DNA of 64,000 bases from Escherichia phage BB1, in sequence record NC_106597.1; one strand, written 5' to 3'. The notes beneath the pieces are model-generated. The model worked only from the letters and a program-made list of their open reading frames with translations. It was not told the origin of the DNA and ran no database searches. Below are positions 1-64,000 of this stretch, piece after piece. A program made the position numbers and the translations under genes. Position 1 is the stretch's first letter; every line of letters begins with the position of its first letter.

Positions 1-213
1 AGATTGCTGGAAAAACGATAAAAACTTTATGCTTCTTTTTGAGTTTAATGTTGACAATGATACCATCAAAAGTTTTGCACCATTGCCCACAGGTATTTTT
101 GAAAATTTTAAACGATCACATAAGCAAGATGTGGAGTTAACTTTAGAAGAAATTCTAGCGGATGATTGGGAGATTGTTGAGCTAGATGTGTAGCAATTAC
201 CGAAAAATTTCAG

Positions 214-242
214 TTGCTTAATCCTATAATTCTTGATATAAT
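214..242 (+). promoter_or_regulatory. sigma70-type promoter (TTGCTT, 17-bp spacer, TATAAT)
   Basis: Read directly: -35 at 214-219, -10 at 237-242. Confidence 0.55.
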
Positions 243-299
243 ATTCTCATAGTTTGAAAGAACTATTCTGTTTAATTCTTAATTAAGGAAATATAAAAT

Positions 300-710
300 A
301 TGACTACTCCAACTCAGTGGACTGATGAACTGTTCGAAAAAATGTCTTCCGAATACGTTGCTCGTATGGAGCAATTCCCAGAGGATGAACGTCCGGGTGT
401 TAGCATGGAAATTGTTAGCGAAATTGCTCAGGAAAATGGTGTAACTCCGAACGGTTTTCGTATGAAGTTGACCAAAGCAGGTGTATATATCAAGAAAGCT
501 GCTGGCTCTGCTTCTAAATCTAGCGCATCTACTGGAGAAAAGGCTTCTGGTGGTTCTCGTACTTCCAAAGCCCAAGCTCATGCCGACCTTCGTTCAGCAT
601 TCTCTGATGCTGGCTTAGCCCCAGATTTTCTGGATGATGCAATTATCGACAAACTGACCGGTAAAGCGGCTGCTCATCTGGCAGAAGCAATCCGAGCTAT
701 CACTAAGTAA
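300..710 (+). CDS. hypothetical protein with HTH-like motif; shares a ~25-aa motif with ORF 3436..4203 and ORF 49446..49853
   Basis: ORF with AAGGAA ribosome-binding site 8 nt upstream; host-like codon choice (ctg/cgt/gct); consensus promoter directly upstream. Confidence 0.6.
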   Translation: MTTPTQWTDELFEKMSSEYVARMEQFPEDERPGVSMEIVSEIAQENGVTPNGFRMKLTKAGVYIKKAAGSASKSSASTGEKASGGSRTSKAQAHADLRSAFSDAGLAPDFLDDAIIDKLTGKAAAHLAEAIRAITK

Positions 711-746
711 TTTTAGATAAATCCACCAACAAAAGGAACTACAGTT

Positions 747-1043
747 ATGACCAAAGCTGAAATTATCGCACAATGTGAAAAATTTGGTGAGTTTTATCTT
801 CATTACGAGAAACTTCGTCAGAAAGGAACCACGTACCTTCAGGGTACGATGGAATTTGATCCAGCCCAAGATAAATATCTGGCTGAGCGTATTAAACGTG
901 AACGTATTCGTAAAGCGAAAGATGATGAGATCCTTGTCTTCTCTCGTACTAATGATAGCTTCCGTTTTATTCCTGTCGAAAAAGTCCGTCGTGTGACTAG
1001 CCTCCAATCAGAGTTAGATCGTGCTTCTCCAGTAGGCCGATAA
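747..1043 (+). CDS. hypothetical protein
   Basis: ORF with AAGGAA RBS; followed by rho-independent terminator. Confidence 0.55.
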   Translation: MTKAEIIAQCEKFGEFYLHYEKLRQKGTTYLQGTMEFDPAQDKYLAERIKRERIRKAKDDEILVFSRTNDSFRFIPVEKVRRVTSLQSELDRASPVGR

Positions 1044-1053
1044 GAAACCAATT

Positions 1054-1076
1054 AGCCCCTATATGGGGCTTTTTGT
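1054..1076 (+). terminator. rho-independent terminator
   Basis: AGCCCC-TATAT-GGGGCT followed by TTTTT. Confidence 0.7.
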
Positions 1077-1093
1077 GTATTTGGGATATGTAA

Positions 1094-1402
1094 ATGAGCG
1101 AACAGGTAAATCAAAACTATGAAGGACACGTTGATGACCAGTCCATCATACTTTGGGAGAAGGAGGGAGAACAAGTAAGACTAACAGTATCTGAATTTCG
1201 TGGGAATCTATACATGGGTATTCGTTACTGGCTTCTTGATATTAATGATGAATGGTTTCCAACGAAATCTGGCTTCTCTTTTCCTTACACCCTAGAAACA
1301 ACATCACAGCTTTTCTATGCGTTTACACAGATTCTTAGCGAATCTGAGGTTTTACATGAAGTACAGAAACGAGCTGAAGAACTCAAAGCCAAGAATGCCT
1401 AG
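1094..1402 (+). CDS. hypothetical protein
   Basis: ORF bracketed by two terminators; weak RBS. Confidence 0.45.
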   Translation: MSEQVNQNYEGHVDDQSIILWEKEGEQVRLTVSEFRGNLYMGIRYWLLDINDEWFPTKSGFSFPYTLETTSQLFYAFTQILSESEVLHEVQKRAEELKAKNA

Positions 1403-1416
1403 TTCTTGGCTTTTTC
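1388..1416 (+). terminator. rho-independent terminator overlapping stop codon
   Basis: GCCAAGAA-TGCCTAG-TTCTTGGC followed by TTTTT. Confidence 0.7.
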
Positions 1417-1429
1417 TTTATAAATGTAT

Positions 1430-1458
1430 TTGCTTTCAACTCAGTTTTATTATATAAT
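1430..1458 (+). promoter_or_regulatory. sigma70-type promoter upstream of ligase N-terminal subunit
   Basis: -35 TTGCTT 1430-1435, 17-bp spacer, -10 TATAAT 1453-1458; downstream ATTTATATAAATTGAT identical to the ligase C-subunit promoter. Confidence 0.6.
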
Positions 1459-1489
1459 ATTTATATAAATTGATGAGAGATATAAATAA

Positions 1490-2461
1490 ATGACTAATGT
1501 AAAAGACTTTATTAAACGCTGTCAAGAAGCATATTATCAAGGTATGTCTTTAATCTCTGATGAGGAGTATGATTGCCTGGTAAAACGCTTCCCATTAGAA
1601 GAAGAGATCGGACCTAAGGGTGATATTCCACATCTATATCGTATGTATTCTTTACAGAAAGTTTATTATAATCGTGGAGATAAACCCCCATTCAACCCAT
1701 TAGGTCAGGTAGAAACTGATAAGTTAGATGGTTGTGCGATTTCTCTGTTATATATTAATGGAGAATTTGTTCAAGCACTAACTCGTGGCAATGGTATTCT
1801 GGGAAATGATGTCACAAGCAACGTAAGATTGCTGAATATCCCTAAAAAGATTTCCCAAAAAATACCTACTCAAATCACTGGTGAAGTTCTAATTACAAAA
1901 GAAGTAGAAAATAAACGTAACTTTGCCTCTGGTGCTATTAACCTCAAAGATAGCGATGATTTCGTACAGCGTATCGGGGAAGGTGGTTTAATCTTCGTCG
2001 CATATGGCATTCAGTGTTCTGCTGAATCTGTAGGTATTACAGAAGCATATTTAAAAGATATGCTTTGGCTGGAGAATGAGAACTTCTTAACAGTTGTTAA
2101 TGTACGTTCCTTCTTTAAATGGATTCCGACGGACGGTAAAGTTGTTCGTATTAATGACAACAACAAATTCTTCCGTGAAGGCTGGACTAATAAATTCCCT
2201 CGCGGGGCGTTCGCTATTAAAGAGGATGAAGAAGGCGAGATTACAACTCTTACTAAAGTTGAATGGCAGGTAGGGGCTTCTGGTAAAGTAACTCCAGTTG
2301 GTTATTTCGAACCGGTAATTATTGATGATGCTACAATTGTTAAAGCGACTCTTAATAACGTTGATTATATTAACTCTCTCGATCTAGAGATCGGTTGCCA
2401 GATTCGAGTGATTCGTGCTGGTGGTGTAATCCCGTGCATAGTAGAGCGAGTATACGATTAA
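1490..2461 (+). CDS. NAD-dependent DNA ligase, N-terminal (adenylation) subunit
   Basis: KxDG adenylation motif (ETDKLDGCAISLLY); own consensus promoter; T5-like phages carry a split NAD ligase. Confidence 0.8.
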   Translation: MTNVKDFIKRCQEAYYQGMSLISDEEYDCLVKRFPLEEEIGPKGDIPHLYRMYSLQKVYYNRGDKPPFNPLGQVETDKLDGCAISLLYINGEFVQALTRGNGILGNDVTSNVRLLNIPKKISQKIPTQITGEVLITKEVENKRNFASGAINLKDSDDFVQRIGEGGLIFVAYGIQCSAESVGITEAYLKDMLWLENENFLTVVNVRSFFKWIPTDGKVVRINDNNKFFREGWTNKFPRGAFAIKEDEEGEITTLTKVEWQVGASGKVTPVGYFEPVIIDDATIVKATLNNVDYINSLDLEIGCQIRVIRAGGVIPCIVERVYD

Positions 2462-2511
2462 TACATAACCCTTTGCTACCCATCTACCATATCGGAATTA
2501 TAAAGTGGTTA

Positions 2512-2540
2512 TTGACATTTTCGCCGCTTAGGTATATACT
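2512..2540 (+). promoter_or_regulatory. sigma70-type promoter (TTGACA, 17 bp, TATACT)
   Basis: Read directly in the ligase intergenic region. Confidence 0.45.
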
Positions 2541-2604
2541 ATTATCATTCAGTTGAGGGATAGAAAGTTATGGCGAGGGTAAGCAAAGTTAGTTAAAATT
2601 GTAG

Positions 2605-2633
2605 TTGCTAAATGCTTAAATACTTGCTATAAT
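2605..2633 (+). promoter_or_regulatory. sigma70-type promoter upstream of ligase C-terminal subunit
   Basis: -35 TTGCTA 2605-2610, 17-bp spacer, -10 TATAAT 2628-2633. Confidence 0.6.
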
Positions 2634-2663
2634 ATTTATATAAATTGATAAGGAAGAAATTTG

Positions 2664-3443
2664 ATGAAAATCGAAATTCCAACACAATGTCCCTCTTGTG
2701 GTTCTAAGCTAGATCTTGTCAACGGACAATTATTCTGTCGGAATAAGTCCAACTGTCCAGCGCAATCAAGCAAGTTAATTGAGAACTTCTGTTCAAAAAT
2801 GAAGTTAAAGGGCTTTGGCCCAAAAACTATTGAGAAGCTGGAGCTGACGAAGATTTCAGAACTATTTTACCTAACCGAAGAAGATTTGGTTAGAGCCGTG
2901 GGTAGCAAGGTTGCCGCTAAGTTAATTAGCGAATTAAATACTAAAGTTCGCGGAGACATTGACTTTGGTTCAGTTCTCGGTTCTTTAGGAATCCCTCTAA
3001 TTGGAGAGGTTGCAGCAAAGAAATTATCCCAAAATTGCACTAGCTTCCATGATGTGAAGGCTGACGGCAAGGCTGGAGAAAATTATAAAGCCTGGCTAAA
3101 TTCCCCACAAGGCAAGGATGTTATCGAATTACCGTGGAAATTTTCAACTGGTATTAAGGGCACTAAAGCTGACGTCATCATTACAGATGAATTAGTTGCC
3201 CAGCCAAATGGAATCGCGGTATGTATTACCGGATCTTTGCAAGATTTTGCAAATCGAACGGATGCAACAAACTATTTAGAAAGTCTAGGGTATACGGTTA
3301 AGAAATCCGTTACCAAAGACGTCAAATACCTAATCTGTGAGGATGAATCGAAGCGTTCTTCCTCATCTTATAAGAAAGCCGAAACGAATGGGATAGAAAT
3401 CCTGTCGATTAAAGAACTATTGGAGAAAAATAATAATGTCTAA
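2664..3443 (+). CDS. NAD-dependent DNA ligase, C-terminal subunit (Zn-finger/HhH/BRCT)
   Basis: Four-Cys zinc finger (CPSCGSKL...CRNKSNCPAQ); start moved to ATG 2664, 7 nt after AAGGAAG; track ORF begins at TTG 2661. Confidence 0.75.
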   Translation: MKIEIPTQCPSCGSKLDLVNGQLFCRNKSNCPAQSSKLIENFCSKMKLKGFGPKTIEKLELTKISELFYLTEEDLVRAVGSKVAAKLISELNTKVRGDIDFGSVLGSLGIPLIGEVAAKKLSQNCTSFHDVKADGKAGENYKAWLNSPQGKDVIELPWKFSTGIKGTKADVIITDELVAQPNGIAVCITGSLQDFANRTDATNYLESLGYTVKKSVTKDVKYLICEDESKRSSSSYKKAETNGIEILSIKELLEKNNNV

Positions 3444-4203
3444 ACTGAACTGGAACGTAGAAGGTGTAACCGAGTCTCTGAAAGCAAAAGCCACTGCTCT
3501 GGGTGTTTCTGTAATCTCTCAAGAACAAGTAGCTGCTATCGCTACTGAACTGGCTGCTGAAACTGGCAAAGATGTTACTGCTCGCTCTGTTGGCTCTAAA
3601 CTGCGTAAAGAAGGTTTTGAAGTACAGAAAGCTAACGAAGTACAGAAATCCCCGTGGACTCCTGAGCAGGAAGCTGAACTGGTTGATTTCCTGAACGCTC
3701 ATGCTGGTCAGTATACCTATGCTGAAATCGCTGCTGCTGTAGCTGGTGGTCAGTTCGGTGCTAAACAGGTACAGGGTAAGATCCTGAGTCTGGAAATGAC
3801 TGCTTCTGTTAAACCAACTGAAAAAGCTGCTGCTGTTCGTTCCTTTACTCCGGATGAAGAAACTGATTTTGTTAATCAGGTTGTTGCTGGTGCTACTATT
3901 GAAGCTATCGCTGCTCACTTCGGTCGTAATATCAAGCAGATCCGTGGTAAAGCTCTGAGCCTGCTTCGTGAAGGTCGTATCGCTGCTATGCCGGTACAGG
4001 AAACCTCAAGTGCTAAAACTCGTGAAGATCTGTTAGAAGGTCTGGATCTGGCTAACATGACTGTTGCTGAGATCGCTGAGAAAACTGGTAAATCTGAGCG
4101 CGGTGTTAAATCTATGCTGTCTCGTCGTGGTCTGGTTGCTAAGGACTATGATGGTGCCGCTAAGCGTGCTAAACTGGATGCAAAAGCTGCGGCTGCTGAA
4201 TAA
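3436..4203 (+). CDS. putative abundant DNA-binding protein with four tandem HTH-like repeats (possibly T5 D5-like)
   Basis: Strong host-like codon bias; four internal repeats of a LuxR/sigma region-4-like motif (e.g. VAEIAEKTGKSERGVKSMLSRRGLVAK); size fits a ~28 kDa protein. Confidence 0.45.
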   Translation: MSKLNWNVEGVTESLKAKATALGVSVISQEQVAAIATELAAETGKDVTARSVGSKLRKEGFEVQKANEVQKSPWTPEQEAELVDFLNAHAGQYTYAEIAAAVAGGQFGAKQVQGKILSLEMTASVKPTEKAAAVRSFTPDEETDFVNQVVAGATIEAIAAHFGRNIKQIRGKALSLLREGRIAAMPVQETSSAKTREDLLEGLDLANMTVAEIAEKTGKSERGVKSMLSRRGLVAKDYDGAAKRAKLDAKAAAAE

Positions 4204-4220
4204 TCTGGTAAATTAAACCT

Positions 4221-4253
4221 AAGGGGAGGGGGCTATGCTCCTTCCCCTTTTTG
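4221..4253 (+). terminator. rho-independent terminator
   Basis: AAGGGGAGGGGG...CCTTCCCCTT followed by T-run. Confidence 0.7.
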
Positions 4254-4285
4254 CATTTAGAAGGCACGAAAGCGTGCAAAGGAGA

Positions 4286-5758
4286 ATGACCTTGTTTAAC
4301 GTGCAAGCTGTAGTGTTGAAGATGCTTCTAGCTTCTGAACAGAAGCAAATAGCATTGGAAACATTCTCAAAACTGCATAAAGATCATTTTAATGACGCTT
4401 TCTCCTCAATTTACCAAGCCGTCCAGAATTATTATAAAAAATATAACACAATGCCGTCCATTGATGCACTGATGCTTGAGGCTAATAGGAACGCCCGCCT
4501 TTCTCAAGCTCTAGTCGTCTTAGCTAACACTCAAATTCCAGAAGTGAGCATGGAACAGGCACTTGAAGTCCTAGAGGCCGAATATACACAGGATTTATTC
4601 CTGAAGCTTCTAGAAACAGACGTGCTTCAAGATTTAACAATGCTGGATCAGGGAGAAATTCTCAACCGAGTTGCCTCCCTTCACTTAAAATTAGAAGAGA
4701 AAGTAACGAATACTGGAAAAGTATTCAACGCAGATAACATGCGTATTTTCCAGAGAGAAGAAGATACCAAACTGAACCTAATCGCTCTTGGTATTTGTAA
4801 TGAGTTCGACGCTCAAATTGGTTTAGCTCGCACAGAAACGTTACTGCTTGGTGGTTGGCGTGGTACTGGTAAATCCATTATCTGTTCAAACATACAGGTT
4901 CAGCAATATTTGAATGGAGATATTGCTCCATACTTCTCAATTGAGATGAAAGAACATGAAGTATTTAGACGTAATCTAGCCATGTTAGCTGGTGTATCAG
5001 CATTAGCAATGCGTAATAATACTCTAGAAGGTGCAGCTCTGTTGAGATTGGCCAGAACTAGAGCTAGAATGTTTAATGGGGGTGAAGAGCTTTTTGATAA
5101 CTTCGTTAAACAGTACACAATGGCTAAGATGAGTGATTTCTACGATATGGAGAGTAAGCTAATAGAGGGATATGAACTACATACTCCCATGATTATTGTT
5201 TATGATCCTGAACTGTCCATTACAACAGTTGACGTAGAATTAAATAAATTAGTTGCTAGATACGGAGATAAAGTTACAGTAGCTTTACTGGACTATATTA
5301 ACCAAACCCGACTTCCAGACTCTAAAACCATTGATATGTATGACTGGAAAGAACAGATGGTTGTTAGCTCGTCTTTCAAATCTATCTGCCAGAAACATAA
5401 CGTGGCTGGCGTAGCTCCTTACCAGATCGATCAAGATGGTAGAACACGTATGTCAAAGGGGATTCTTGATTCTGCAGACATGGCTGCTAATCTTAATGCT
5501 GCAAAAGCTGATAATGGTCAAGGTGCTATTATGTTTGACTTCGTTAAGACTCGTTCTTCTGATAGCGTGAAGTTTATGCCTAAAATGAACTGGGAAACCC
5601 TGCGGATGGATAACACTACCAACCTAGCAATGGAAGATATATCTCAAATGGAAGCTGAGTTCGTTATCCCTATTGAGAAGGATAAGCCGGCTCAACCTAA
5701 ACGTGCTAAGAAAGACAAAGCTGAAAATTCAACAGGTGAACAGGCCAGCGATATATGA
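4286..5758 (+). CDS. DnaB-like replicative helicase / RecA-fold ATPase
   Basis: P-loop LGGWRGTGKS; sits directly upstream of primase; track ORF start 4235 lies inside a terminator hairpin so start is probably ATG 4286 or TTG 4292. Confidence 0.55.
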   Translation: MTLFNVQAVVLKMLLASEQKQIALETFSKLHKDHFNDAFSSIYQAVQNYYKKYNTMPSIDALMLEANRNARLSQALVVLANTQIPEVSMEQALEVLEAEYTQDLFLKLLETDVLQDLTMLDQGEILNRVASLHLKLEEKVTNTGKVFNADNMRIFQREEDTKLNLIALGICNEFDAQIGLARTETLLLGGWRGTGKSIICSNIQVQQYLNGDIAPYFSIEMKEHEVFRRNLAMLAGVSALAMRNNTLEGAALLRLARTRARMFNGGEELFDNFVKQYTMAKMSDFYDMESKLIEGYELHTPMIIVYDPELSITTVDVELNKLVARYGDKVTVALLDYINQTRLPDSKTIDMYDWKEQMVVSSSFKSICQKHNVAGVAPYQIDQDGRTRMSKGILDSADMAANLNAAKADNGQGAIMFDFVKTRSSDSVKFMPKMNWETLRMDNTTNLAMEDISQMEAEFVIPIEKDKPAQPKRAKKDKAENSTGEQASDI

Positions 5759-6645
5759 GTAGAATAACAGAACTACTTGATCTGAAAGGCATTGAATATA
5801 AAGACACAGGTGGGGACATCCTCATCTGTTGTCTCAATCCAGATCATGACGATAAACACCCAAGTTTGCGTATTGATCCTGAAACAGGTATTATGCACTG
5901 CTTGAGTTGTGGCTTCGGTAAAGGTATACCGAGCATTTACCATTATTTTAATGAGACTCAGTACCGACAGTCCCCAAGACTATCACAGGTACGTAAAAAG
6001 ATTTCAGAGATTAGGAATGGATCTACGAATCTTGCAATTCCTGAATCTGCTTACCTTTTCGAAGGTGATTTCCGAGGTATAAGTTCTAAGACCTTGAAGA
6101 AATATTTTGCTTTCCAACACCAAGCAGACTGGGAAGGCAGAATTGTATTCCCAATCACAGATGCTGTTGGACGCAATATCCTATTTTTGGGTCGTTCTAT
6201 AAACAGTTCTGCCCCTCCTAAATACCTAGTAAAACCAAAACAAGTTTCACCGCCAATTTTTCCTGTACGATATAATACTCCAGTTCTTATTCTAGTTGAA
6301 GGTATCTTTGATATGCTGAATCTAGAGGATAATGGTATAGACTATGCTTCTTGTTGCTTTGGTACACATCAGTTTACTTCAGACAACATTGCAGATAAGT
6401 TCAGTCCGTATATTATTGCTGGTGTTAAAGTTGTTGTTATCTTACTAGATAATGATGCTTCTGGTAATAAAGCTGCACAAGCACTGGCTAAGCTAATTCG
6501 TACAAAAACGCGTTTAACACCTGTAGTTGCTAACTTTCTTCTGCCTGAAGGTAAAGACCCAGGTGACTTAAATAAAGAAGAAATTGATATGTTAGCAAAA
6601 CGTATTGAAATTTTAGTTGCTGAATCGCTTAAAGATTTGGTATAA
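5755..6645 (+). CDS. DNA primase (CHC2 zinc finger + TOPRIM)
   Basis: CxxH...CxxC zinc finger (CLNPDHDDKHP...HCLSCG); TOPRIM-like LVEGIFDMLNL and acidic LLDNDASG; ATGA overlap with helicase. Confidence 0.7.
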   Translation: MSRITELLDLKGIEYKDTGGDILICCLNPDHDDKHPSLRIDPETGIMHCLSCGFGKGIPSIYHYFNETQYRQSPRLSQVRKKISEIRNGSTNLAIPESAYLFEGDFRGISSKTLKKYFAFQHQADWEGRIVFPITDAVGRNILFLGRSINSSAPPKYLVKPKQVSPPIFPVRYNTPVLILVEGIFDMLNLEDNGIDYASCCFGTHQFTSDNIADKFSPYIIAGVKVVVILLDNDASGNKAAQALAKLIRTKTRLTPVVANFLLPEGKDPGDLNKEEIDMLAKRIEILVAESLKDLV

Positions 6646-6671
6646 TAGTCCTAAATAACTGAGGAGCTACT

Positions 6672-7001
6672 ATGGAATATGTATATATTTATGCGGATGT
6701 TCCAGTGTATGATAGTATAACACACAAAGAGGTTAAACTAGAGCGGTTTACAACACTGGAGTCCCTTAATAAACGAAAGAATTTCCATTTATTTGGTGAT
6801 CCTAAATTACCTGCATCTTATATTTACTTTAAAGTAAAAGATACAGGTCAAGAGGTATACCTAACATATGATTGGGCTGTTGTAGAAAATACTGAGCAAT
6901 CTATGAAAGCGCTAGATGCTTTTCTGCGTATAGATGAAGAATTTCGGGTACTAGAAAAGCAGCGCAATGAAATGCGTAAATTACTTCACACCTATAAATA
7001 G
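6672..7001 (+). CDS. hypothetical protein
   Basis: ORF with GAGGAG RBS. Confidence 0.5.
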   Translation: MEYVYIYADVPVYDSITHKEVKLERFTTLESLNKRKNFHLFGDPKLPASYIYFKVKDTGQEVYLTYDWAVVENTEQSMKALDAFLRIDEEFRVLEKQRNEMRKLLHTYK

Positions 7002-10152: not shown

Positions 10153-11501
10153 AGGTTGTTATATCTAATAAAGCCTATTTCAAGCCCGATGATGAACTTT
10201 GGGATTACTGTAGTAAGCAAACCACTTATCACATAGAGACAATGACTAGTAAATACCCTATTATGTATAAGAATAGTGGTGTTGTTGCCAAAGAGATTAA
10301 GTGGATTCCTATTACGCGTCTGGACTTACTAGATGCTAAAGGAGTAAAATACGAATTAGTCGATAAACGCACATTAGCTCCAGTAGATATACCAAAACCT
10401 AAGTTCAAGCTGCGTGAAGAAGACCAGCTCCCAATATATGAAGAGTGCGATGATACCTGTATTATTAATGGTAAGCCTGGATTTGGCAAAACTATCCTAG
10501 CTCTTGCACTTGCATATAAATTTGGCCAGAAAACTTTGGTAATTTGTACCAACACATCTATTCGTGAAATGTGGGCGGCAGAAGTTCGTAAATGGTTTGG
10601 GTTTGAACCAGGTATCATAGGTTCTGGGAAATACAATATTGATCCACCAATTGTGGTCAGTAATATTCAAACAGTGAATAAACATGCGAATAATCTTTCT
10701 AAAGTATTCGGTACTGTTATAGTTGATGAAGTTCACCATTGTGTGGCTACAACTTTCACTAACTTCCTAGAAATATCATGTGCCCGCTATAAGATTGGAC
10801 TATCCGGTACATTAAAACGAAAAGATGGTCTACAAGTTATGTTCAAAGATTTCTTTGGATATAAGATCTTTAGTCCGCCGGTTAATAATACTGTTGCACC
10901 TACAATCCATAGGTACTCCGTGCCTGTTGAGTTATCGGGTAACCAAAACGTACCATGGGCATTACGTGCTAATGATGTGTATAATCATCCTGAATATCGA
11001 GAGACTATTATAAACCTGGCGCATTTATATGTGAATATGGGGCATAAAGTGCTCATTGTAAGTGACAGAACAGAGTTGATCCAAACAGTACTAGAAGCTC
11101 TTGCACAGCGTGGTGTTACAACATACGAAATTATAGGGGCAACCCACTTGGATGACCGATTAAAAATTCAGGAAGATATAGCAAAAGGTGGACCTTGTGT
11201 ACTTGCAGCAGCTCAAAGTATCTTCTCTGAAGGTATTTCCCTTAATGAGCTGTCTTGTTTAATAATGGGAAGTCTCATTAATAATGAATCTCTAATCGAA
11301 CAGCTTGCAGGACGTGTTCAACGTATTGTCGATGGTAAACTCGACCCTATTGTTGTAGATCTAATTATGAAAGGTGGCACTGGACTAAGACAGGCTTCCG
11401 GACGTATGGCAGTATATCGTAACAACGGGTGGAAAACTATTACCATGACTCCGGAAAAAGCAGTTCAATTAGCTAAAATTGCATTTGGCAACAGCTCATA
11501 A
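10149..11501 (+). CDS. SF2 helicase (T5 D10-like)
   Basis: Walker A GKPGFGKT; Walker B DEVHH; ATGA overlap with upstream ORF. Confidence 0.7.
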   Translation: MKVVISNKAYFKPDDELWDYCSKQTTYHIETMTSKYPIMYKNSGVVAKEIKWIPITRLDLLDAKGVKYELVDKRTLAPVDIPKPKFKLREEDQLPIYEECDDTCIINGKPGFGKTILALALAYKFGQKTLVICTNTSIREMWAAEVRKWFGFEPGIIGSGKYNIDPPIVVSNIQTVNKHANNLSKVFGTVIVDEVHHCVATTFTNFLEISCARYKIGLSGTLKRKDGLQVMFKDFFGYKIFSPPVNNTVAPTIHRYSVPVELSGNQNVPWALRANDVYNHPEYRETIINLAHLYVNMGHKVLIVSDRTELIQTVLEALAQRGVTTYEIIGATHLDDRLKIQEDIAKGGPCVLAAAQSIFSEGISLNELSCLIMGSLINNESLIEQLAGRVQRIVDGKLDPIVVDLIMKGGTGLRQASGRMAVYRNNGWKTITMTPEKAVQLAKIAFGNSS

Positions 11502-11513
11502 ATGATGTATAAT
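11485..11513 (+). promoter_or_regulatory. sigma70-type promoter with CATAAATTTGAGAGAG initial transcribed region
   Basis: -35 TTGGCA, 17-bp spacer, -10 TATAAT 11508-11513. Confidence 0.5.
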
Positions 11514-11584
11514 ATATACATAAATTTGAGAGAGAAAGTTTCGGATTGATAAGAAAGTCCGAAGCAGAAAAATAAAAATTTTAG

Positions 11585-11614
11585 TTGCTAAATTCTCTCG
11601 AAATCTAGTATAAT
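11585..11614 (+). promoter_or_regulatory. sigma70-type promoter with CATAAATTCGAGGAG initial transcribed region
   Basis: -35 TTGCTA 11585-11590, 18-bp spacer, -10 TATAAT 11609-11614. Confidence 0.55.
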
Positions 11615-11721
11615 ATATACATAAATTCGAGGAGAAAACAAAAATTAAATTCTTCGATTATGAAAAGCTATACTTACTAGCTAGAGGAAATTCCGACCTA
11701 ATTATTAAGCTATTCAAAAGA

Positions 11722-27000: not shown

Positions 27001-27611
27001 AGACTTTCCCTCAAGGAAAGTGAAATACCAGAGTAAGTACCATTGTTATTTAATGTAGAACCAAAAGAATCAGCATTCATTAGCTTAGTTCTAAATAAGA
27101 TACCATTAAAAACTGGTTTTTCACTACCCGTAGTAGTAATAAATAGGTCAGGGTATAAGGATAAGTTCCATACATTTCCTGAGCTAGTAAAATTTGTTAT
27201 TTTATAGACTTTTGGGTGATTGGATAATTTAAATAGATCTCCAGCTTTTGGTAGTCCTGTCAAAGTTCCATTAGTATTTAGTATAATCTGAGAACCTTTC
27301 TGGCCTGCTGGTATAGTAACACTTTTAGTATCACCACGTACTCTAAATGCTTCATACTGAGGTAGAAGTACTTCTAGATAATCTCCAGTTCTTTTATATT
27401 CTAAAATTTTAGAATCTAGGAATGCATATTCATCTGGGAAAAGTTCCGGGTATGAGATATTAATTCCCCAGTATTGAGCAGATATTTTAACCTCTTTGAC
27501 TTTACCATTAGGTAATTCATCACGAATCATAGGGTCATTATCTACTACGTTGACGCTTTCAAAACCTAACCCTGGGTACTCTGGGTTCGTGTATGGATCT
27601 GGTAGTCTCAT
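26997..27611 (-). CDS. distal tail protein (pb9-like)
   Basis: 204 aa; follows tape measure; AGAGGAG RBS. Confidence 0.5.
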   Translation of the reverse strand: MRLPDPYTNPEYPGLGFESVNVVDNDPMIRDELPNGKVKEVKISAQYWGINISYPELFPDEYAFLDSKILEYKRTGDYLEVLLPQYEAFRVRGDTKSVTIPAGQKGSQIILNTNGTLTGLPKAGDLFKLSNHPKVYKITNFTSSGNVWNLSLYPDLFITTTGSEKPVFNGILFRTKLMNADSFGSTLNNNGTYSGISLSLRESL

Positions 27612-27681
27612 AGTTAATTTCTCCTCTTTAATAACAATATTATAATAGTATTGGAAAATTTTATCAAGAAATTTTTATTTT

Positions 27682-34643: not shown

Positions 34644-35129
34644 TTATCTGCGAAGTGACCTACGTGGAGGCTGATACCTCACTGTTACATTTATTTCTGC
34701 TAAACCATATGGGGCCAGTAGACCCTCATCTGTACTAACTGATGTAATGATCATATCAGTTGCCTCACATGGGAAGGTCGATCCATTAGGTTTACTAACA
34801 GTATATTCTAAATTTCCACCTGTGTCAATAACGGTTTTTATATCCGCTACGAGTTTTTCAAGTTGCTCTTGAATGTCTGTTTTCTCTTTATCGTACACCA
34901 GGATTGGAAGTTCTAAAAACATCCACTGTTGGCCTGAAGGAAGATACTGCCCAGTTTCAGTTCCGATATGAACTGCTACATAAGGAAACTCTCGTATTTC
35001 CTCAAATTTATAGGTTTGACGAGAAACGTTTCCGTATAGATTATTAAAATATTCGTCAGGTTGAGAACCATCCATTTGTTTAGAGATTCGGTCAACCATA
35101 GCTTGTGCAATACTTGTTCTGTGGTCCAT
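34644..35129 (-). CDS. putative tail terminator / tail completion protein
   Basis: 161-aa ORF immediately upstream of major tail gene. Confidence 0.4.
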   Translation of the reverse strand: MDHRTSIAQAMVDRISKQMDGSQPDEYFNNLYGNVSRQTYKFEEIREFPYVAVHIGTETGQYLPSGQQWMFLELPILVYDKEKTDIQEQLEKLVADIKTVIDTGGNLEYTVSKPNGSTFPCEATDMIITSVSTDEGLLAPYGLAEINVTVRYQPPRRSLRR

Positions 35130-40632: not shown

Positions 40633-40746
40633 AGTGTTCTCCTCAACTGTATGAATATAGTATACATAATCGTATCGAATTTGTAAAGGGGATTTTAAAA
40701 TGCAGGAATGGGATACCAACTGAGTAGTATCCCATCCTATATTTAT

Positions 40747-61372: not shown

Positions 61373-61662
61373 TTTTTCTTTAATTGCTTGACTTCACGCT
61401 CAAAGCTAGCTGCTCGGCGTTCTGCCACTGCTTGATGCTCCTTAGCAAAGCGTGCCTCTTGTTTTGCTAAGTTAAAGGCCATAGCGTTCTTGTTAAGAGA
61501 ATCATACATCTTCTTCATCGCCGGAATAGACATTTTCATCAGTTGCCCCTCAAATCCTTGCATGTCGAGGAGAATTGCTAATACATTGGCCATTTCAGTC
61601 TTGGTAAGGTTAGAGGCGTCGAAGTCTTTAGTCATGTTTTCCATTAGAATTTCCTCTCTCAT
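61366..61662 (-). CDS. hypothetical protein
   Basis: 98-aa ORF with RBS. Confidence 0.45.
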   Translation of the reverse strand: MREEILMENMTKDFDASNLTKTEMANVLAILLDMQGFEGQLMKMSIPAMKKMYDSLNKNAMAFNLAKQEARFAKEHQAVAERRAASFEREVKQLKKKC

Positions 61663-61722
61663 TAATTTATGAACTTATTATACAGAATTTTAAGGCTTAA
61701 AGCAACTGAATTTTTTAATTAC

Positions 61723-62154
61723 TTACCAATCGTTAACAACGCCGGAGAACTCAGAAGCAAAAACTTTTTCAAATTTCTCTGCAATTTCAGGATGATCTTT
61801 GCAGATCAGCTCAATACAGGCTTCTGGAGTCATTCCTTCATCTTCAGGATCCCCATAGTATTTATCCCAAAGATCATCAGGAATGATATGCTCCGCCAAA
61901 TCTTGGAAAGAGATTAACTGATAACGTTCTGCTTCCTCGGGGATAAGGATTTCACAAAGATCTTTATCTATATCACTACGGTAATCAGCAATTAGCAGGG
62001 CATTGCAAGCATGACACTCCCAAACCATCAAGCGTTCAGAAATAGGATTAGACTTATCCTGTACGTAAGACTGAAACAGGGTTCGGAAAGTTGCCTTAAC
62101 TTGTTCAAACTTATCTGCTGCTGCGAAAACTAGAGCTTTATCAACTTTGTTCAT
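61723..62154 (-). CDS. hypothetical acidic protein
   Basis: 143-aa ORF. Confidence 0.45.
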   Translation of the reverse strand: MNKVDKALVFAAADKFEQVKATFRTLFQSYVQDKSNPISERLMVWECHACNALLIADYRSDIDKDLCEILIPEEAERYQLISFQDLAEHIIPDDLWDKYYGDPEDEGMTPEACIELICKDHPEIAEKFEKVFASEFSGVVNDW

Positions 62155-63946: not shown

Positions 63947-64000
63947 TTAATCCTCCTATCAATCTATATAAATATTATACCAAAATTTTTAGCAAAAAGC

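Follow-up and report, generated by a model that had tools for sequence, protein, structure and literature searches.

The window analysed here is a 64,000-nucleotide stretch of the genome of Escherichia phage BB1 (NC_106597.1), a T5-like phage (Tequintavirus). Positions 188–5720 are 97.0% identical to T5 st0, and more than 400 T5-like genomes match the region 1000–4300 at 90–98.5% identity. The locus carries the split NAD-dependent DNA ligase of Demerecviridae, confirmed here as two ORFs with stops between the domain halves (Table 1). The N-terminal half, encoded by ligA, is matched by Pfam PF01653 (2.7e-23) and PF03120 (3.8e-22). In the C-terminal half, encoded by ligB, the BRCT domain is recognised by Pfam (5.7e-8) and the HhH score lies under the Pfam cutoff. 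The ligB ORF begins at an ATG conserved across relatives, and the T5 record puts the start at TTG 2661. The ligase is split in every examined locus that still has ligA, with ligA–ligB gaps of 61–1580 nt. The ligA–ligB junction is also a recurrent landing site of GIY-YIG and T5orf172 endonuclease genes.

Table 1 Genes, promoters and terminators of the split-ligase locus, with the other promoters of the window used for comparison.
Feature	Position	Strand	Description	T5 annotation
Promoter	about 224–242			equivalent of P-N 26
Intrinsic-terminator-like hairpin and T-run	1385–1413	+	12-pair stem followed by TTCTTTAT; overlaps the stop of the PC4-like gene	
P(ligA)	1430–1474	+	-35 TTGCTT 1430–1435, 17-nt spacer, -10 TATAAT 1453–1458	AY692264 57237–57304, promoter upstream of ligA, "putative" only
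ligA	1490–2461	+	ORF; N-terminal half of NAD-dependent DNA ligase, adenylation and OB-fold domains	
P-K28b	2492–2566	+	-35 TTGACA 2512–2517, 17-nt spacer, -10 TATACT 2535–2540; 11/12 to consensus	AY692264 58311–58385, promoter P-K 28b
Mini-ORF	2570–2596	+	8 codons, MARVSKVS, within the leader from K28b; unlikely to act as a peptide	
P-K28a	2585–2659	+	-35 TTGCTA 2605–2610, 17-nt spacer, -10 TATAAT 2628–2633; early-type	AY692264 58404–58478, promoter P-K 28a
ligB	2664–3443	+	ORF; C-terminal ligase half, Cys4 zinc finger, HhH and BRCT	
D5-like gene	3436–4203	+	ORF; multi-HTH DNA-binding protein; start overlaps ligB stop	
Strong intrinsic terminator	4221–4249	+	13-pair stem with 8 GC pairs, then T-run	
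P-G25	27644	minus		named in the T5 annotation
P-J5	34805	minus	TTGACA/TTTACA-N17-TATACT; structural-gene region	
Portal-operon promoter	40664	minus	TTGACA/TTTACA-N17-TATACT; structural-gene region	

Consensus-like promoters precede both ligase genes, and a further TTGACA/TATACT promoter precedes ligB, so that all three sites of the original prediction are present where it had placed them. In P(ligA) the -10 hexamer is followed by the discriminator ATTTAT (1459–1464), the putative +1 (A 1465) and the initial transcribed sequence ATAAATTGAT (1465–1474). The same discriminator is seen in P-K28a, where the putative +1 is A 2640 and ATAAATTGAT occupies 2640–2649. P-K28a also displays a TG at 2625–2626 (extended -10) and an A-rich block at 2594–2597. 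The discriminator of P-K28b reads ATTATC and its +1 would be A 2547, the transcribed start TTCAGTTGAGGGA including a Shine-Dalgarno-like GAGGGA at 2555–2560. The Shine-Dalgarno sites of the genes themselves are GAGAGA (1475–1480) for ligA and AAGGAAG (2650–2656) for ligB. These +1 positions (1465, 2547 and 2640) rest on the layout of the T5 features. In all named 75-nt T5 promoter features the -10 hexamer lies at feature position 44; thus the features would span -55 to +20, with the +1 seven nucleotides after the hexamer. The P-N25 numbering quoted by Klimuk et al. (PMC7472727) agrees with this layout. In the 202-nt ligA–ligB spacer, two sites matching the consensus at 10/12 positions or better arise in 0.7% of dinucleotide shuffles. 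A generic promoter scan at a loose threshold returned 14 sites against 14.9 expected and was not informative, discriminating power coming only from high-scoring promoter sites and from conservation.

The ligA–ligB spacer and its flanks (2380–2720) are 100% identical to T5 AY692264. T5 P-K28a and P-K28b, of the HindIII-K fragment, thus have the same spacer sequence, the same position between ligA and ligB and the same hexamers and spacing as the promoters in the window. The two phages are relatives, about 97% identical overall, and differ in the ligA copy of the 22-mer described below, which is 22/22 in the window and 21/22 in T5. The names K28a and K28b reportedly come from the function-selected T5 promoter set of Gentz and Bujard, of 1985. 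That both are genuine promoters is supported by the GenBank feature names, and by Klimuk 2020 (PMC7472727), which cites that promoter set. In that article, primer extension in vivo gave products for only 11 of the 19 in vitro T5 promoters. A full-text literature search for K28a and K28b returned nothing relevant, and no genome-wide map of T5 transcription start sites was found in a literature search. We regard the three promoters at the split ligase as sigma-70 promoters of a T5-like phage that had been catalogued in T5 before, with a probability of roughly 0.9. Their arrangement is an ordinary feature and not a new one: the T5 literature and GenBank record already contain these promoters, what they are called and what the conserved sequence downstream of them does.

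The identical stretch reported downstream of both promoters is exact, with copies of the 22-mer TATAATATTTATATAAATTGAT at 1453–1474 and 2628–2649. However, it starts with the -10 hexamer itself and not after the promoter. By analogy with the P-N25 numbering, the 22-mer would run from -12 to +10, starting with the -10 hexamer and continuing through an AT-rich discriminator into the initial transcribed sequence. A third copy with one mismatch is located at 63958–63979 on the minus strand, giving three matches against 0.02 expected from shuffles. Similarly, TATAAT-N6-ATAAATTGA with up to 2 mismatches has 11 occurrences in the window, where 0.77 would be expected. Of the promoters annotated in T5 within its first 100 kb, all of which were extracted, 23 have a TTGCnn -35 and a TATAAT -10. 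The consensus of these 23 promoters from -6 to +14 is ATtTTTATAAATTgAtGAGA, from which the ligase 22-mer differs at one position.

Their sequences place P(ligA) and P-K28a in the early-promoter family of T5. Members of this family combine an A-rich block at -43, a TTGCTn -35, a 17-bp spacer, TATAAT, an AT-rich discriminator bearing ATATT, an A at +1 and a purine-rich, AT-rich initial transcribed sequence of the form ATAAATTGA. The hexamers and spacing are TTGCTT-17-TATAAT at 1430–1458 and TTGCTA-17-TATAAT at 2605–2633. The A/T-rich upstream block around -43 is present ahead of the two -35s as ttataaatgtat and gttaaaattgtag; the T5 family consensus 5' of the -35 is TnnnTTAAAATTTTAn, and for K28a its AAAA is invariant in 9 lineages. 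Both copies of the 22-mer read TATAATATTTAT and carry the ATATT in the discriminator region that is common to early T5 promoters (Klimuk 2020, PMC7472727), whereas K28b is without it. In both, ATAAATTGAT conforms to the family's initial transcribed sequence ATAAATTgA from +1, the consensus for +1 to +14 being ATAAATTgAtGAGA.

The shared stretch had also been read as a sign of duplicated regulatory modules of the two ligase halves, and this part of the original prediction is not supported. It would require that one module was copied by recent duplication or gene conversion and then kept identical for co-regulation of the subunits. The 22/22 identity of the two promoters in the window agrees with such an origin, as does the finding that the 16 nt following the -10 are the same in three T5 promoters, giving 3 identical promoter-core pairs against 0.05 expected from column frequencies. 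Nevertheless, the spacers of P(ligA) and P-K28a match at only 5/17 positions and, when the two promoters are aligned on the -10, they have nothing in common outside -12 to +10 but family-consensus positions. The exact 22-mer also heads unrelated units, being found at T5 P13b, which heads non-coding RNA and tRNA genes, and at T5 putative promoter 26720. The ligA copy carries 1–2 mismatches, alongside an exact ligB copy, in T5 and many relatives, whereas in the relative L027 it is the ligB copy that has 2 changes. In addition, the "ligA" promoter is cut off from ligA by an extra small ORF in about half of the T5-likes, and Sugarland ligA, which overlaps the gene before it, has no promoter of its own. 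The copies therefore change independently in relatives, which argues against concerted evolution, and the 5/17 spacers together with the presence of the core at unrelated promoters argue against a ligase-specific duplication. On these three grounds a recent duplication of a ligase-specific module is rejected, and we give it very little credence. The identical cores nevertheless point to a genome-wide sub-family of T5 promoters, which may be related by descent or conversion or by selection for one optimum.

The shared block is best read as a -10 element joined to an early-type discriminator and an escape-optimised initial transcribed sequence. At the 22-mer the host RNA polymerase would open the promoter and then escape quickly, the sequence from +1 onward forming the start of a leader of about 25 nt that would run into the Shine-Dalgarno site. 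A characterised counterpart is T5 P-N25 (Kammerer et al. 1986; Hsu laboratory), which has the same architecture as the ligase early promoters (TTGCTT, N17, TATAAT, a 6-nt AT-rich discriminator, then +1 ATAAATTTGAGAG). It differs from them in its discriminator, AGATTC against ATTTAT, and in its initial transcribed sequence, ATAAATTTGAG against ATAAATTGAT. In P-N25 the transcribed region from +1 to +20 tunes promoter escape (PMC12464699). With +3 to +20 replaced, about 10-fold less full-length RNA is made and the half-life of escape rises from about 3 to about 45 min (PMC12464699, which cites Kammerer 1986).

The block 3' of the -10 could instead be mainly the target of a phage regulator, such as gpT5.026 acting through RNA polymerase, or D5, and so tag promoters for a coordinated early shut-off. 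The main difference between early and late T5 promoters is in the discriminator, loss of gpT5.026 raises early transcripts, and the protein lowers the affinity of RNA polymerase for the -5/+2 region (Klimuk 2020, PMC7472727). It also fits that P(ligA) and K28a bear ATATT and K28b does not. However, the late promoter P-G25 has ATATT too (TATAATATTGTT), the in vitro effect of gpT5.026 is weak, at most two-fold (PMC7472727), and host polymerase by itself already shows the influence of the initial transcribed sequence on escape (PMC12464699). Such a target would moreover be compatible with the escape-optimised block and could add to its basal promoter role rather than replace it; as the main function of the block we consider it rather doubtful. 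Still less probable is that +1 to +10 is conserved for its place in the 5' leader of the mRNA, as AU-rich translational enhancer and Shine-Dalgarno context, and not as a promoter element. The leaders are indeed only 24–25 nt long and the Shine-Dalgarno sites of ligA and ligB follow directly. The same block is nevertheless present at P13b, ahead of the T5 genes for non-coding RNA and tRNA, and at K28b and the promoter at 11508, which are upstream tandem members without an ORF; it is thus unlikely to act purely as a translational leader. Published swaps of the initial transcribed sequence also alter RNA output in vitro, in the absence of translation (PMC12464699).

The promoter arrangement in related phages, a comparison that had been proposed as a check, is upheld for ligB and only partly for ligA. 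A LigB-profile scan of IMG/VR gave 61 loci at 36–99% identity, in which the order PC4-like gene, ligA, ligB, D5-like gene and helicase is kept wherever the contig is long enough. A distinct upstream sequence was counted as having a promoter if a near-consensus site lay no more than 150 nt from the start codon. For ligB such a promoter is found in 45 of 45 distinct upstream sequences, typically 24–30 nt upstream and down to 36% protein identity. The share is 45% for ligA, 9% for the helicase, 5% for the PC4-like gene and 4% for D5. The tandem of K28b and K28a is present in T5-likes, in Sugarland-like Klebsiella phages, in three further lineages (L030–L032) and in Vibrio phages of another subfamily, with a -10 to -10 distance of 93 bp here and of 86–97 bp among relatives. 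When 9 lineages are aligned, with LigB identity as low as 51%, essentially no columns are invariant other than the hexamers of both promoters, the A-tract and TTGnTATAAT; the TATACT of K28b is kept in 8/9 lineages. Among 27 distinct T5-likes, nucleotide diversity across 2496–2663 is about 0.004, compared with 0.156 and 0.092 at third codon positions of ligA and ligB; it is 0 in both K28b hexamers and near 0 at K28a. A second tandem promoter pair lies elsewhere in the window, at 11508 and 11609, 101 bp apart. Tandem strong promoters precede highly expressed units such as those of E. coli rrn P1/P2 and the T7 A1-A2-A3 cluster. Like these, K28b and K28a are full promoters in tandem, 86–97 bp apart and positioned to fire into one unit.

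The transcript from K28b would begin with a leader (2547–2663) that might act as a regulatory RNA, a hairpin or the mini-ORF controlling ligB translation on the long transcripts only. The predicted fold of this leader in the window has an energy of -32 kcal/mol, whereas shuffled sequences give -20 ± 3 (z = -3.97). A hairpin adjoins or covers the K28a -35 in several lineages, and z for the inter-promoter segment is -5.9 in L031, -3.25 in L032 and -2.5 in Sugarland. There is, however, no common structure: structures vary by lineage, with z averaging -2.1 and lying near 0 (-0.4 to -0.5) in pVp-1-like phages, so that a conserved RNA structure was rejected. The mini-ORF fares no better as a leader peptide: L031 and Dax have no counterpart, that of Sugarland has 4 codons and that of L032 has 9 unrelated ones. 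Nor does the region have an Rfam match; a scan of 1–7000 gave a sole sub-threshold match (E = 0.15), of a Streptococcus sRNA model to a terminator hairpin at 1043–1074. A regulatory role of this leader is thus most improbable.

K28b differs in type from the other two promoters of the locus. Promoters with a TTGACA or TTTACA -35, a 17-bp spacer and a TATACT -10 are found in the window only at K28b (2512–2540), at P-J5 and at the portal-operon promoter, with TTGACA-N17-TATACT common to all three. The sequence downstream of the portal-operon promoter, ATATTCATACAGTTGAGGAG, closely resembles that downstream of K28b, ATTATCATTCAGTTGAGGGA. In Vibrio phage Dax the homologues of P-J5 and of the portal-operon promoter are likewise the TTGACA/TTTACA, 17-bp, TATACT promoters. 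P-J5 is late by primer extension (Klimuk 2020, PMC7472727). Taken together, the TATACT type, the downstream likeness to the promoter at 40664 and the late activity of P-J5 suggest that K28b may be late-type. Unlike its two counterparts in the structural region, K28b is located among the early replication genes, with an early-type promoter immediately downstream. We put forward only tentatively, from motif likeness, that K28b is a late-type promoter kept directly upstream of early-type K28a from T5 to the Vibrio phages; ligB and D5 would then be served early and late, and ligA early only.

Independent expression of the two subunits, as originally proposed, stands in one direction. The ligB gene can be transcribed without ligA from its own promoters, and a promoter directly upstream of ligB is found in 45/45 distinct relatives. 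In contrast, transcription of ligA is probably not insulated from ligB: no plus-strand terminator is predicted between 1413 and 4221, so ligA transcripts probably continue into ligB. Many relatives, moreover, either lack the ligA promoter or have it displaced. Moreover, the ligB promoters do not serve ligB alone. D5 lies directly 3' of ligB in every locus examined, and its protein is named "late gene transcription factor" in some records. The fraction of optimal codons is 0.85 in D5, against 0.43 in ligB and 0.56 in ligA, and D5 uses CTG for 17/19 Leu and CGY for 12/12 Arg. The overlap of the ligB stop with the D5 start and the codon bias, which is seen in D5 and not in ligB, make the internal tandem promoters look like the head of a ligB–D5 operon. 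D5 is presumably an abundant DNA-binding protein, an assumption that draws on its codon bias and on the D5 literature. The best reading of the internal promoters is that they head a deeply conserved ligB–D5 operon tuned for high D5 output, and that they are not a device balancing the ligase halves. Transcription of the locus would then proceed in four steps. The terminator at 1385–1413 would end the upstream PC4-like unit, and P(ligA) would drive ligA and read on past it. P-K28b and P-K28a, 93 bp apart, would add transcription of ligB and the translationally overlapping D5, and the terminator at 4221–4249 would close the ligB–D5 unit.

The arrangement itself has little discovery value and raises no new question; the comparative results are modest additions that could guide a T5 transcript-mapping study. 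They place a promoter between the ligase halves throughout this phage clade, where it heads the ligB–D5 operon, and its upstream tandem member, K28b, looks late-type by its motifs. If K28b is indeed late-type, the ligase halves and the D5 switch protein would have different time courses.

Transcripts from K28b, the first of the tandem T5 promoters P-K28b and P-K28a preceding ligB, may fold into a long, imperfect hairpin with the K28a promoter sequence as its 3' arm. The RNA spanning 2547-2648 (+) has a predicted folding energy of -32 kcal/mol, with a z-score of -3.97. Hairpins adjoining the K28a -35 element are also present in several lineages, with differing sequences, and are absent from others. 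The K28b/K28a layout is mirrored by a second pair of promoters, of the early type, whose -10 hexamers are separated by 101 bp and which have TATAATATATACATAAATT in common. The first promoter of this pair is followed by the Shine-Dalgarno-like GAGAGAGAAAG and a TTCGGA...TCCGAA hairpin, while no ORF follows it.

Two further promoters, the portal-operon promoter and P-J5, lie in the late region, and the sequence downstream of the portal-operon promoter nearly matches that downstream of K28b. The leader of P-G 25 coincides with RBSII, the "synthetic" ribosome-binding site of the pDS/pQE expression vectors, which suggests that the vector site was derived from the phage leader. The symmetric GC hairpin at 1054-1070 accounts for the only Rfam match within 1-7000, which is sub-threshold.

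Promoters and hairpin in the window
Feature	Position	Strand	Details
Symmetric GC hairpin	1054-1070	both	AGCCCCTATATGGGGCT; flagged terminator-like
Tandem early-type promoters	11480-11640	+	-10 hexamers at 11508 and 11609
Promoter matching T5 "P-G 25" (late)	27600-27680	-	TTGATA-N17-TATAAT, then ATTAAAGAGGAGAAATTAACTATGAGA
P-J5	34780-34840	-	late region; TTGACA/TTTACA-N17-TATACT type
Portal-operon promoter	40640-40700	-	late region; TTGACA/TTTACA-N17-TATACT type

The T5 record places the start of ligB at a TTG (window 2661). In contrast, Sugarland, Dax (a Vibrio phage) and the other lineages all retain the ATG at 2664, which is also better spaced from the AAGGAAG Shine-Dalgarno motif than the TTG. 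The D5-like gene directly after ligB (3436-4203, +) displays an extreme, E. coli-type codon bias, with a fraction of optimal codons of 0.85. Its product contains several HTH-like repeats, one of which, at residues 204-230, gives a Sigma70 region-4-like hit above the Pfam threshold. In the record of T5 st0 it is the helicase, rather than this gene, that bears the name "D5 protein", so annotations are at odds over which gene is D5. T5 also carries an HNH-endonuclease-like ORF, T5p118, between helicase and primase (record 61574-62107), whereas in the window this ORF is missing and the stop of the helicase gene overlaps the start of the primase gene (5755-5760).

In approximately half of the T5-like genomes, the "ligA" promoter is separated from ligA by an additional small ORF, positioned ~200 bp 5' of the gene (loci L009-L011, L013-L016, L019, L023, L025, L027 and L028, among others) and overlapping the ligA start codon with its end. 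This ORF, absent from both T5 and the window, accounts for insertions of 179 and 272 bp in the BLAST comparison. Some relatives carry inserted genes at the ligA-ligB junction itself (L028 3184-3840, L052 3547-3930, L063 3570-3935 and L003 1697-2915). The junction inserts comprise a GIY-YIG endonuclease in an SP3-like phage, T5orf172-domain proteins immediately 5' of the ligB promoter in metagenomic lineages and three ORFs in Vibrio phages. Genes of the homing-endonuclease type appear to have landed repeatedly at the site where the ligase is split.
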